29,875 nucleotides of DNA from a virus (lineage: Duplodnaviria; Caudoviricetes). The translations under genes and the position numbers were made by a program. Location of the stretch: the IMG/VR virus record IMGVR_UViG_3300005805_000325, positions 1 to 29,875 of that record; one strand, written 5' to 3'. Below, piece after piece: positions 1,942-5,433 of the stretch (within the stretch, counting starts at the first letter, position 1; each line of letters starts with the position of its first letter). A model generated the notes under the pieces. It saw only the letters and a program-made list of their open reading frames with translations, was not told the origin of the DNA and did not search any database.

Positions 1942-2217
1942 ATGCCGACACTTACTGACAGAGACCTAGAAATCCAACGCATTGCCGCAGCCTACTCATA
2001 CTTTGAGACCGATGCCGGCAAACTGGTCATTGCAGACCTTGAGAAAGCCTTTGGCATCAATGTGCCGGCCTTCCTTCCCCAAGACGGCAGGGCATACGAC
2101 CCCATTCACGCAGCTATCCGCGACGGTCAGAGGAGCGTTCTCCTCCATATGAAGGCCGTCGCAACCAAACACAACAATGGCGAGACCACGAAAAAACCCG
2201 ACCCCAAGCGAGAATGA
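1942..2217 (+). CDS. Small conserved head-module protein (Bbp19-like)
   Basis: 91 aa between portal and scaffold; F.TDAGKLVIADL…DPIHAAIRDGQRSVLLHM pattern. Confidence 0.7.
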   Translation: MPTLTDRDLEIQRIAAAYSYFETDAGKLVIADLEKAFGINVPAFLPQDGRAYDPIHAAIRDGQRSVLLHMKAVATKHNNGETTKKPDPKRE

Positions 2218-2368: not shown

Positions 2369-3277
2369 ATGATAACATCTGACGCCATTGCCGCAGACCC
2401 CGTGGACGGAAACGCCCTCTTGAGTCAGCAGGCTAACACCCCACCCCCTAGCACCCCCTCACCCATTGGGGACAACCTCCTCTCGACCCCGGCACCAGAG
2501 GCACCCGCCTCCAATTCGCCTTGGGTCAACGACAAGGGAGAGTTTTCCGAGGGGTGGCTTGACCGGCTCCCGAAGGAACTTGCCGAACACAAGCAGATCC
2601 TTGGTCAGTTCAAGGACATCGACGGGGCGCTCAAGACCCTCGTGAGCCAGCAGAAGATGCTCGGCAAGAAGGCTGATGCCCTTATCATACCTGACGATAA
2701 GGCTACTCCCGAAGAGAAGGCCGCATTCCTCAAGAAGCTCGGAGTGCCAGATTCGCCCGAAGCGTACCAACTCCGCCCCAAGGATCTCCCTGCCGGCTAC
2801 GAGTGGGATGATAACATCGCCAAAGAGTTCAACACCCTCGCTCACCAGAACGGGATCACCCCGCGCCAGATGGATGCCCTCATGTCGCGCTATGCGGCAT
2901 TTGAAGCGCAGAAGGCCGAAGCCGCCGCCTCCCAGCAGAAAGCCGAGATGGAAGCCGGTCGCAAGGCTCTCGCTGAAGCGTGGGGCGACAAGTACGATGT
3001 GGAATTGAGCGTTGCCCGTCGAGCCGCCCAAGTCGCCGGCGTCGATGTCAACAGCAAGGGGTTCTCTGATCCCTCTGTGGTGCTGGCCTTCAACCGCCTC
3101 GCCAGAATGATGTCTGATGACAAGATCGTGAACTCGGACACAGCGGGCACGATGATGGCAGGCAAGGCCCGTGCGATGGACATCATGACCAACCCACAGA
3201 ACTCCCTCTACACCCGCTACAAGTCGGGAGACAAGGAAACCGCAACCCTGGTCGCAGACCTTCTGAAAAATGGATAA
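2369..3277 (+). CDS. Capsid scaffolding/assembly protein
   Basis: 302 aa; Pro-rich N-terminus, KLGVPDSPEAY, HQNGITPRQ and ALAEAWGDKYD motifs; lies between portal and capsid. Confidence 0.8.
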   Translation: MITSDAIAADPVDGNALLSQQANTPPPSTPSPIGDNLLSTPAPEAPASNSPWVNDKGEFSEGWLDRLPKELAEHKQILGQFKDIDGALKTLVSQQKMLGKKADALIIPDDKATPEEKAAFLKKLGVPDSPEAYQLRPKDLPAGYEWDDNIAKEFNTLAHQNGITPRQMDALMSRYAAFEAQKAEAAASQQKAEMEAGRKALAEAWGDKYDVELSVARRAAQVAGVDVNSKGFSDPSVVLAFNRLARMMSDDKIVNSDTAGTMMAGKARAMDIMTNPQNSLYTRYKSGDKETATLVADLLKNG

Positions 3278-3581
3278 CCAATACGACAACGAGAGAAAGG
3301 GCGTCCTCTTCCTCAAGGGAAGCGAGAACCCGAAAGCCCCCAAGTGGTCGGGCAAGATGACCCTCAAAGGCATCGAGTACCAGATCGCCGCATGGGAGAA
3401 GATGTCCAAGTCGGGAAAGGAGATGCTCACTATCAGCATCACCGACAAGCCGGCAGGAGGCAGCTATGCCAACTCCCCAAGGCGTGATGACTACCCTCCC
3501 TCGCCTGCTCTGGTCGCTCACAACAAGGCCAAGGCCAACGGCTACCAGAAGCAACACGAAGAAGACGACATTCCGTTCTAA
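3270..3581 (+). CDS. Putative single-stranded DNA-binding protein (small OB-like fold, acidic DDIPF tail)
   Basis: 103 aa; ENPKAPKWSGKMTLKGIEYQIAAWEK core, flexible linker, C-terminal EEDDIPF identical to the bacterial SSB C-terminal tip. Confidence 0.7.
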   Translation: MDNQYDNERKGVLFLKGSENPKAPKWSGKMTLKGIEYQIAAWEKMSKSGKEMLTISITDKPAGGSYANSPRRDDYPPSPALVAHNKAKANGYQKQHEEDDIPF

Positions 3582-3607
3582 CCTTTAGCTTGGTTGGTTC
3601 ATGCACA

Positions 3608-3643
3608 AGCCCTCACCGGGAAACTGGTGGGGGTTTTGCTTTT
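3608..3643 (+). terminator. Intrinsic terminator after the SSB-like gene
   Basis: CCCTCACCGG-GAAA-CTGGTGGGGG stem-loop followed by TTTTGCTTTT; G-U pairs favour the + strand. Confidence 0.8.
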
Positions 3644-3653
3644 GCCCTAATAA

Positions 3654-3733
3654 TTTGACATATAAATCATGCTATACCCTAAAGGGTGTATTTTTTGACA
3701 TACAGGGCATTTTATTCCCTATCGGGTATATTT
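3654..3733. repeat. Two imperfect 40-bp tandem repeats, each TTTGACATA…TATWCCC-N4-GGGTRTA
   Basis: Unit 1 at 3654-3693, unit 2 at 3694-3733; 18-bp palindromes at 3673-3690 and 3713-3730. Confidence 0.8.
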
Positions 3734-3923
3734 TGGCATTATTACTGGTATGTACTAGGTAATGTCAGCTATAGCTTCCGTTACCGGCCTTTATGTCCGC
3801 TAAAGGAAACCTTACTTGTTAAAGAAACGCATCGGTATCTTTAACAGCTAACAAAGTTATTAAAGATTGGCAGTCGCCTTGAGTGTTTAGATCCGTGCCT
3901 TGAGATTCACCCATGAGGGGAAT
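3734..3923. promoter_or_regulatory. Cluster of further operator-like palindromes and short repeats
   Basis: ATTAC…GTAAT (3741-3763); AGCTATAGCT (3767-3776); ATGTCMGCTAWAG twice (3762, 3793); TGTTAAAGA-N12-TCTTTAACA (3817-3846); GCCTTGAG twice (3876, 3897). Confidence 0.5.
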
Positions 3924-3994
3924 TTGGTTGCGGTGGCTAAACCATGATAAGATCCCTAAACTTGCTATAACCATTTCCGTGACGCCACGAAAAA

Positions 3995-4063
3995 GGTCGG
4001 AGGGGGATTTGAACCCCCATACCCTCCATTGGGAGGGATCTTGCCCCCTTTAGATCATCCGAC
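3995..4063 (-). ncRNA. tRNA-like cloverleaf with a 4-nt loop in place of the anticodon loop
   Basis: Minus strand reads GTCGGA-TG-ATCT(AAAGGGGGCA)AGAT-CCCTCC(CAAT)GGAGGG-TAT-GGGGG(TTCAAAT)CCCCC-TCCGAC-C. Canonical T-arm, 6-bp acceptor, no encoded CCA. Confidence 0.75.
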
Positions 4064-4069
4064 AAAAAA

Positions 4070-4150
4070 GGTCGGAGGAGGATCAGGTCGCTACTACTCC
4101 CGATATGGCCGAAAAGCCAACCAGTTTCGCCCCTCATTGCCTCCCCCGAT
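4070..4150 (-). ncRNA. Structured ~80-nt RNA of unknown class
   Basis: 10-bp closing stem TCGGGGGAGG/CCTCCTCCGA and an inner CTGGT-TGGC…GCCA-T-ATCGG hairpin. Same 3' end (CCTCCGACCTTTTT) as the tRNA-like element. Confidence 0.55.
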
Positions 4151-4158
4151 TTTTGTAT

Positions 4159-4205
4159 TGGCAGACGCCCTTATCAGGGGCGCAGGGGTCACGCACCTAC
4201 TGCCA
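4159..4205 (-). ncRNA. 47-nt three-way-junction RNA containing a tRNA-Ile(GAU)-type anticodon arm
   Basis: TGGCAG/CTGCCA closing stem, TAGG/CCTG hairpin, then CGCCC-CTGATAA-GGGCG (4166-4182). Confidence 0.55.
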
Positions 4206-4228
4206 GTCTTTCGTGAATCTGAAATTGG

Positions 4229-4274
4229 GCGTGGGGTGAAGGGATGACCTTCTCGCGCCGGCGCTTCCCCACGC
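4229..4274 (-). ncRNA. 46-nt three-way-junction RNA
   Basis: GCGTGGGG/CCCCACGC 8-bp closing stem with GCG(CCGG)CGC and GAAGG(TCATC)CCTTC hairpins. Confidence 0.5.
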
Positions 4275-4281
4275 AACGCCA

Positions 4282-4309
4282 ACTCTACAAATCATTTCAG
4301 AAAACGCAA
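4282..4309 (-). promoter_or_regulatory. Putative sigma70-type promoter for the antisense RNA cassette
   Basis: TTGCGT-N16-TAGAGT on the minus strand; the predicted start falls at about 4274-4275, the 5' end of the first structured element. Confidence 0.45.
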
Positions 4310-4329
4310 TCTTTTTGTGCGAATTATCG

Positions 4330-4358
4330 TTGACGTGTTAGGTGAGTGATGTTAGGTG
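4330..4358 (+). promoter_or_regulatory. Putative capsid (late) promoter
   Basis: TTGACG-N17-TAGGTG with a TGTTAGGTG direct repeat; the structured leader starts about 12 nt downstream. Confidence 0.4.
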
Positions 4359-4370
4359 GTTAAATTGTCA

Positions 4371-4478
4371 ACTTGAGGGACAACCTCTCTGGCGATTGCC
4401 AGTAGCAGATCCGAGTAGAGTGGACATCCCCGATGTTAAGTGATCTCGAAAGAGGCAACCATTTATTCGGATGCAAGT
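4371..4478 (+). ncRNA. Structured 5' leader of the major capsid gene
   Basis: ACTTG/CAAGT closing helix; 14-bp helix 4409-4423/4459-4472 with G-U pairs; hairpins CTGGC/GCCAG, ACATC/GATGT and CTC-GAAA-GAG. Confidence 0.6.
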
Positions 4479-4512
4479 AAAACCCTACTCAAACCCCTAA
4501 CTACTCACGAAT

Positions 4513-5433
4513 ATGCTACAGATTCCCGATCACTACGTTATCCAGTACGAGACCAACTGGCAGCACCTCCTTCAGCAGATGGAGAGCCGCCTCAAGGAGA
4601 AGACCAAGTTCGTCAGCGCCTCTGGTGCCGCCGTCCGCTTCAACCAGTATGGACTCACCTCCATGTCCCAGGTCACGACCCGCAATGCCACAACCCCTAC
4701 GGCAAACAGCGACCTGCCGACCCGTTGGGCCTACCCCGTCCCCTACGACATCGCCAATCGCTTCAGCGAGTTCGACAACCTTTTCCTCGGAAGCGTTGTC
4801 CTGCCCACCTCGGAGTGTATGCAGTCGCAGGCCGCAGCCTACGGTCGTCTGGTGGACAAGATCCTCATTGATGCGCTCACCGCATCCGCGACGATCACCA
4901 ACACAGCCAACACCTCCGCTGGTTTTGGTCTGAACAACACCACAACCACCGTTGCCCTCCCCGCAGGACAGTCGGTCGCTGTGAACTACGTCCCTGCCGG
5001 CGGAACCGCTACCAACAGCGGTCTCACCATCGGCAAGCTCCGCGAGGCCAAGCGCATCCTTGATGCGAACGAAGCCCCCGCAGAGGATCGCGTTCTCATC
5101 GTGTCGGCCAAAGAAATCAGCGATCTTCTCGGCACGACCGAAGTGACCAGCAATCTGTTCAACAGCGTCCGCGCCCTTGTGGACGGCGATGTGGATCAGT
5201 TCCTTGGTTTCAAGGTTGTTCGCTCCGAGCAGTTGAACATCGCCTCAAACGTCCGCACATGTGTGGCATACCACAAGAATGCGGCAGTCGTCGTGGATGG
5301 CGGCAAGAAGTCCTACATGGACGTTCTGCCCACCCAGAGCCATGCCCTCCAGATCCGCAGCACAGCGGTTCTCGGTGCGACCCGTCTCCTTGAGAACGGC
5401 GTTGTGAGCATCCTGGCCGACACCACCAAGTAA
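4513..5433 (+). CDS. Major capsid protein (BPP-1/HTVC010P-like)
   Basis: 306 aa; HYVIQYETNWQHLLQQMESRL start, AAAYGRLVDKILIDAL, GLTIGKLREAKRILD, VRALVDGDVDQFLGFK and GATRL motifs; strong codon bias; followed by a terminator. Confidence 0.92.
   Translation: MLQIPDHYVIQYETNWQHLLQQMESRLKEKTKFVSASGAAVRFNQYGLTSMSQVTTRNATTPTANSDLPTRWAYPVPYDIANRFSEFDNLFLGSVVLPTSECMQSQAAAYGRLVDKILIDALTASATITNTANTSAGFGLNNTTTTVALPAGQSVAVNYVPAGGTATNSGLTIGKLREAKRILDANEAPAEDRVLIVSAKEISDLLGTTEVTSNLFNSVRALVDGDVDQFLGFKVVRSEQLNIASNVRTCVAYHKNAAVVVDGGKKSYMDVLPTQSHALQIRSTAVLGATRLLENGVVSILADTTK

Follow-up and report, generated by a model that had tools for sequence, protein, structure and literature searches.

The known RNA counter-defences of phages are single RNAs acting against single systems. 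RNA anti-CRISPRs are said to be non-coding RNAs of phages that act in trans as mimics of the defence RNAs of the host. The same mode of action is described for viral sgRNAs in the available part of the report (10.64898/2026.06.01.729453), and the pseudo-ToxI of PhiTE is a phage RNA that, according to excerpts of its description, mimics an antitoxin (PMC3475682). Each of these three is one RNA type directed against one known system. The locus described here differs in that several unrelated folds stand under one predicted promoter. It lies in a 29,875 nt stretch of phage DNA (IMG/VR record IMGVR_UViG_3300005805_000325; hereafter the window), where four small modules, M1 to M4, are encoded on the minus strand.

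PARIS, retron-Eco7 and PrrC are defeated by phage tRNAs that replace or outnumber the host tRNA that is cut, as stated in the accessible sections of two reports (PMC11464382, PMC11555353). Such tRNAs decode, whereas M2 and M4 of the cassette apparently cannot. Rows of non-canonical tRNA-like RNAs are also found in the irregular-tRNA polycistrons that Mukai et al. located near toxin–antitoxin genes, with some members charged and unused in translation (PMC5389517, available in part). Those are described there as whole cloverleaves with anticodons from presumed acidobacterial DNA, whereas the cassette mixes in non-tRNA folds and its locus is viral.

T4 RNAC and RNAD, which we take to be sited in the T4 tRNA cluster and to undergo tRNA-like processing, show a further likeness to the modules. 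In the portion of the literature at hand (PMC9697503) they are small RNAs of the phage whose function is unknown. The cassette differs from them in exchanging many module types between phages, and a cultured-phage collection contained no sequence match. The abiF RNA antitoxin (RF03085) is absent from the window and neighbours M2- and M4-type modules in other phages, where the copies are single and without a toxin gene. Type III antitoxins are tandem repeats upstream of a toxin gene; the cassette is made of four different modules, and no sizeable gene lies downstream on its strand. A YrlA-type Y RNA had no Rfam match in the window and TROVE (Ro60) was present in 0 of 24 records, while the sole CRISPR repeat match in the window, CRISPR-DR60 at 3709–3745, reached 24.7 bits against a cut-off of 45. 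In the literature we found neither the modules nor an exchangeable multi-RNA cassette described; the catalogue PMC10690425, covered in part and without hits there, may list M2–M4. At least three RNA families, namely M2, M3 and the anticodon-less tRNA bodies, lack an entry of their own in Rfam 15, and they would remain new structured families even if the cassette had no role in defence.

The predicted promoter and the exchange of modules

The window belongs to an HTVC010P-type podovirus and encodes a head–tail adaptor (portal), protease/scaffold, single-strand DNA binding protein (SSB), major capsid, tail and recombination proteins. The cassette resides in the 930 nt of intergenic DNA that separate the SSB gene (3270–3581, plus strand) from the major capsid gene (4513–5433, plus strand), whose product is 30–38% identical to capsids of HTVC010P-type phages. 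An intrinsic terminator predicted 3′ of the SSB gene (3607–3636, plus strand) marks the locus boundary, and on the other side a candidate divergent capsid promoter with its −35 box at 4330 precedes a structured capsid leader (4330–4512, plus strand). Because of this terminator and candidate promoter, the cassette RNA is expected to have no overlapping mRNA. The first-pass annotation had called the cassette antisense, which is right for its orientation on the opposite strand and probably not for an overlap with an mRNA.

The predicted cassette promoter (4282–4309, minus strand) consists of a −35 box TTGCGT (4309–4304), a 16 nt spacer and a −10 box TAGAGT (4287–4282), with a predicted start at G4274, and is kept in close relatives. 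As the first-pass annotation had noted, it is aimed at four closed domains, here placed at 4274–4229, 4207–4157, 4149–4070 and 4063–3994 of the minus strand. A sigma-70 consensus scan of the window left this promoter uncalled, 7 of the 12 consensus bases matching. The folding z-score of the cassette is −2.66 for the minus strand and −2.07 for the plus strand, those of the individual modules are −1.44 (M1), −1.56 (M2), −2.47 (M3) and −0.73 (M4), and among 20 control windows there was one with a better fold than the cassette (z −3.88 versus −2.16). Single-sequence support for the cassette, as given by the folding z-scores and the promoter scan, is therefore weak; what raises it above chance is the comparative evidence from relatives concerning the promoter, M2, M3 and M4.

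Thirteen distinct junctions between promoter and first module match the promoter pattern, which required known module starts and permitted spacers of 16–18 nt; the spacer is 16 nt in all of them. The first base of the first module lies 5–7 nt past the −10 box, and this holds for four different first modules. Four of the 13 junctions, which have TTGACA or TTGACT, belong to phages of other groups. This fixed spacing is the best evidence for the cassette promoter. Applied to metagenome contigs, the promoter pattern gave two loci and no new make-ups.

Of 28 related loci recovered, we compared the 26 that extend to the upstream side of the capsid gene. Close relatives retain promoter and terminator while the modules between them differ. 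In a capsid-gene tree of 20 rows, a single well-supported clade of eight phages comprises five cassette make-ups, the labels of which were assigned by hand. Two relatives (L004 and L005) align with the window at 4282–4501 (95.9%) and 3996–4155 (98.1%) and nowhere between, and M1 and M2 have therefore been replaced exactly from the promoter to M3. Using 22 signatures picked by eye, 41 arrangements were seen over the loci compared, in a loosely fixed order; structure was tested for M2–M4, and the remaining signatures are simply recurrent. The cassette is dispensable, given that four relatives (L018, L019, L022, L025) hold a relic of it and eight more distant loci (L013–L017, L026–L028) lack it. 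As far as sequence comparison can tell, slot and promoter are conserved, modules are exchanged, the structures of M2–M4 are under selection and no reading frame is conserved. The exchangeability of the modules, which is beyond the reach of one sequence, is the main feature of the locus, and the replacements come from a pool common to unrelated phages. A small protein encoded by the frames of 62–72 aa over the cassette was rejected, these frames not being conserved.

Among the recurrent elements is an irregular tRNA-Trp(CCA), for example at 3189–3264 (minus strand) of L001 and in many other loci, usually as first module. Its CCA is encoded, its linkers hold extra bases and its anticodon stem is long; ARAGORN calls it, yet it falls under the Rfam cut-off. 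In the cassette of L082 (2257–2318, minus strand), upstream of M3, the twister ribozyme model has a degenerate match of 45.3 bits, below its cut-off of 67.2.

Structure of the modules

M3 (4070–4149, minus strand) folds into a long stem; its two-strand core is conserved and its apical hairpin can be exchanged. The core is made up of a CA bulge, G.G, AGG/CCU and an AGCGA loop. In the window M3 ends in ACC and a U tract, such a tract following 30 of 42 variants. A small hairpin at 3975–3991 (minus strand), preceded by a U tract, is like those found 3′ of M3 in other phages. The two-strand core pattern occurs at 58 viral loci belonging to 13 flank groups with 38–63% G+C; 12 of these loci are in the window's own phage group. 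They represent, after later additions, 42 distinct variants, of which 37 were aligned. In this alignment 97.5% of 629 cells are paired, a level that none of 500 shuffles attained, the slid controls giving 36–60%. Both sides change in 11 of the 17 pairs, with 69 double-sided cells against 13 in shuffles; six core pairs were fixed by the search pattern and are hence uninformative on covariation. G-U pairs fill 59 of the 629 cells and favour the minus strand, in agreement with what the first-pass annotation had read from G-U pairs. The frame starting from the M3 ATG runs for 4–66 codons and leaves the core in all three frames, which speaks for a non-coding element. No Rfam match to M3 was obtained in the window or at the loci scanned.

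A counterpart of M3 was also sought in hosts and not found. The genome collection yielded five pattern matches, three without the stems and two on contigs read as phage DNA, and among 151 genomes there was one match, on a contig already read as phage DNA. The three matches without stems were dropped as chance; their 22–31 bits with the M3 model are owed to the fixed motif. A Phycisphaerales bin of L105 was not accepted as host evidence.

The M3 core looks like a kink-turn, a reading that was first favoured and then downgraded. We compared it with what we take to be the kink-turn consensus, a 3-nt bulge followed by tandem G.A pairs, which fits the pattern-selected M3 set by construction. Four variants (the second copy in L045, L134, L148 and L150) have lost the A that a kink-turn requires, and two of these keep Watson–Crick or wobble pairs in another register. 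The alternative register has the CA bulge, two pairs, G.G, AGG/CCU and then a G/AGCGA loop. M3 may be circularly permuted in L067 and L077. It carries no tRNA element, and by eye its apical hairpins share no common anticodon-type loop. One apical loop, in L097 near 2001–2055 (minus strand), looks by eye like the Ser(UGA) anticodon loop, the other variants being different.

M2 (4157–4216, minus strand) forms, in a comparison of four sequences, a three-way junction that includes an Ile(GAU)-type anticodon arm (4183–4165). This arm is the sole Ile(GAU)-type hairpin in the window and is identical to that of E. coli tRNA-Ile(GAU) (ileV) at 15 of 17 positions, both differences being compensatory. 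There is no T-arm or full cloverleaf, so that M2 is indeed the anticodon arm without T-arm of the first-pass annotation. Homologues occur at six loci, amounting with the window to four distinct sequences, in which 98.9% of 88 cells are paired. Four of the 22 pairs change on both sides, two of them in the anticodon stem, and the loop is invariant; the search pattern had included this loop, along with a portion of the closing stem. A pseudoknot is the fold of type III antitoxins; in M2 a possible one of 5 bp with 4216–4212 is invariant in all four sequences and shows no covariation. Since this upstream 5-mer is invariant and can pair with the other loop, M2 probably starts at 4216. Neither ARAGORN nor Rfam calls M2. 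The M2 pattern originally gave 32 loci, 26 of which were dropped as chance matches; a relaxed pattern gave 24 loci without new homologues, the exact pattern none, and the M2 model found nothing in 50 M3-bearing records. There was no convincing match in plasmids.

M4 (3994–4063, minus strand) is a tRNA body with D- and T-arms, a 14-nt anticodon arm with a 4-nt loop and no encoded CCA. It scores 33.3 bits with the Rfam tRNA model (RF00005, gathering cut-off 29) and is the only module that passes the Rfam scan of the window, as a marginal tRNA. Likenesses by eye to hammerhead, HDV-like, twister, TPP, SAM, SRP and 5S RNAs were dropped; none came near its Rfam cut-off in the window. Among 11 distinct M4 variants the T-stem, with four stem sequences, is always fully paired, while the anticodon arm measures 14–16 nt in all of them and never the canonical 17, which the pattern permitted. 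The tRNA body without a normal anticodon loop that had been noticed first is thus M4. In other phages the place of M4 is taken by M7, of which six variants have loops of 4–7 nt. M7 (L006, L007, L020, L067, L074, L077) is, like M4, a tRNA body lacking an anticodon; its T-stem is bulged and its acceptor stem extended. In both types the anticodon loop is free and the elbow is kept, which argues for selection on the elbow rather than on decoding.

M1 (4226–4274, minus strand) has an 8-bp closing stem around two hairpins with CCA directly after it, an end that resembles the G-1:C73 end of tRNA-His. Homologue searches brought no relative, one candidate match having no closing stem, and the M1 structure rests on one sequence. 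The covariation expected among relatives was thus obtained for M2 and M3, with the T-stem of M4 kept, and does not extend to M1.

Solitary abiF RNAs and the possible role of the cassette

An abiF RNA (cut-off 37) is found directly upstream of M2 in four of six M2 loci, with 55.4 bits in three and 46.5 bits in one, and a fifth locus has a sub-threshold copy of 33.2 bits. The RNA ends 6 nt before M2. Four of the loci are near-identical, so that this adjacency corresponds to about two lineages. In L111 and L112, an abiF of 30.6 bits, below the cut-off, lies directly upstream of an M4-type body. None of five such records contains an Abi_2 protein; these are fragments of 8–50% completeness, and Pfam may miss divergent toxins. 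The abiF model has no match in the window, and no copy above the cut-off was present in 50 M3-bearing records (one sub-threshold) or in 50 controls.

Unannotated solitary copies also exist in cultured phages: at 58 bits in Acj61 (L184, 1796–1832), at 50.8 bits in the scaffold–capsid gap of CRP-143 (L187, 1802–1839), and, as a sub-threshold match, within the tRNA cluster of phage Mimi (L186, 1803–1833). In four of four whole records no Abi_2 gene was seen. Rfam gave no support to an abiF-like blast match in Bacillus phage P59; the tRNA cluster of this phage holds a Skipping-rope RNA above the cut-off (L185, 1731–1800, plus strand). According to the part of the report available (10.1101/2025.04.15.648962), an RNA with the abiF motif acts in trans, binding AbiF and neutralising it, and for this reason a lone phage copy is most simply seen as an antitoxin mimic like pseudo-ToxI. 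The abiF RNA of cyanophage S-CREM1 had been noted before, in a text whose accessible part does not treat it as an antitoxin mimic (PMC9964418). The copies in cultured phages make the mimic idea directly testable. The abiF beside M2 is the only functional anchor of the cassette, by guilt by association, and such solitary copies next to M2 homologues lend indirect support, by analogy, to a counter-defence role.

The claim of separate structured non-coding modules behind a predicted promoter, forming a polycistronic set on the minus strand, is supported by the comparison of sequences. Our preferred reading, to which we give slightly less than an even chance (about 0.45), is that the cassette is an exchangeable multi-RNA counter-defence kit, made as a predicted single precursor, in which each RNA would bind or bait a host defence protein that recognises RNA. 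Host RNA polymerase would start at G4274 and head away from the capsid promoter. The tRNA-processing enzymes of the host would probably release small RNAs from it: RNase P would cut ahead of the tRNA-like M4 and of the stems ending in ACC or CCA, and nucleases would trim the A/U linkers between modules; by virtue of the proposed cut ahead of it, M4 could double as a 3′ processing tag for M3. M2 would present its Ile(GAU) loop as bait, M1 and M4 tRNA ends or elbows, and M3 a fixed protein-binding core, all modules acting in trans as abiF RNA does on its toxin. Modules could be exchanged when phages recombine at the promoter and at modules they have in common, a process that the RecT-like and exonuclease genes of the phage would serve. 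Against this reading stand the lack of abiF in the window and of above-threshold copies in the 50 M3-bearing records, the roughly two lineages behind the abiF–M2 adjacency, the failure to find M3 in a host or M2 convincingly in plasmids, and the relatives that have a relic or no cassette.

Small RNAs of this kind escape protein-based searches for anti-defence genes, while the swappable promoter slot offers natural presence/absence contrasts among near-identical phages and the modules are short, synthesizable baits for finding host proteins. A wider picture, which we regard as tentative and less probable, is that of an RNA anti-defence island drawing on a pool of about 18 exchangeable small RNAs that mimic host antitoxin RNAs or the tRNA parts recognised by effectors. 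If it is true, M2, M3 and their neighbours would be baits that expose undescribed RNA-controlled or tRNA-directed defences, in the way abiF points to AbiF.

The modules might also work outside immunity, as stable host-takeover RNAs that tune translation or RNA turnover through the synthetases, modification enzymes, ribosomes or RNA-binding regulators to which they bind. Modules often adjoin working tRNA genes (Gln, Asn, Met), and the inner motif of M3, which we take to be loop-E-like, has its G-A pair in 12 of the 42 variants. T4 RNAC and RNAD, too, are expressed RNAs of unknown function in the available part of their description (PMC9697503). We nevertheless consider this explanation rather unlikely: the content changes quickly among near-identical phages, as would be expected of an arms race more than of a housekeeping target, and the abiF RNAs in the same rows are left unexplained.

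In the first-pass annotation all four modules were taken for tRNA-part decoys, aimed at anticodon nucleases and tRNA-modifying toxins. The Ile(GAU) arm of M2 with its 15 of 17 identities is consistent with this, as is the recurrence of M4, M7 and the irregular tRNA-Trp in the slot. M3, the best-conserved module, is however not tRNA-like and its apical hairpins show no shared anticodon-type loop, so that the description is too narrow; the loop at which an anticodon nuclease cuts is missing from M4, none of whose 11 variants has a canonical anticodon arm. The published counters, moreover, as far as the available text goes, supply working tRNAs and not bait (PMC11464382, PMC11555353), and such a general decoy function is improbable.

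It is slightly less probable still that only M3, perhaps with M2, is the effector and that M4 and M7 are RNase P handles giving the upstream RNA an exact 3′ end. In 12 of the 42 variants M4 or M7 comes after M3 at a distance of no more than 45 nt, and where either occurs it closes the row of core modules; an elbow kept beside a freely varying anticodon loop would suit a handle. Against this, the tag is absent in 30 of 42 M3 variants, M4 stands alone behind the promoter in L021, and CCA is encoded in 3 of the 11 M4 variants. Equally improbable is decaying tRNA-cluster debris or a set of DNA-level palindromes without RNA function. This would agree with the low folding z-scores, with the relics and absences among relatives, with an M1 that has no homologue and with the broken acceptor pair in the M4 copy of L001, but can hardly account for the M3 pairs that changed on both sides and the 59 G-U cells found on a single strand, for the recurrence of modules across 13 flank groups that are unrelated, or for module starts locked to the promoter.

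Other elements of the SSB–capsid gap

The capsid-gene leader contains covarying stems between 4355 and 4490 (plus strand), with double-sided changes in 11 of 29 predicted pairs among 11 sequences, and a G(G/A)CAACC motif occurring twice, at 4379 and 4454. This stretch, which has no Rfam match, is a candidate translational operator. Between the leader and the cassette promoter, L007 (1893–2513, minus strand) and also L008 have an inserted gene of 206 aa with an HNH-like motif, read by eye, and L012 has a different insert at this place.

Beyond the cassette, further AT-rich blocks (3645–3970) are common to other cassette-bearing phages; they are partly palindromic and may be RNA or DNA elements. 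They include three to four copies of a palindromic motif, TCTTTAA(C/T)A, at 3815–3870, which is found nowhere else in the window and could represent operator sites. Strong folding was also seen on the minus strand of the capsid gene, at 4701–4985 (z −3.88, 30 shuffles).
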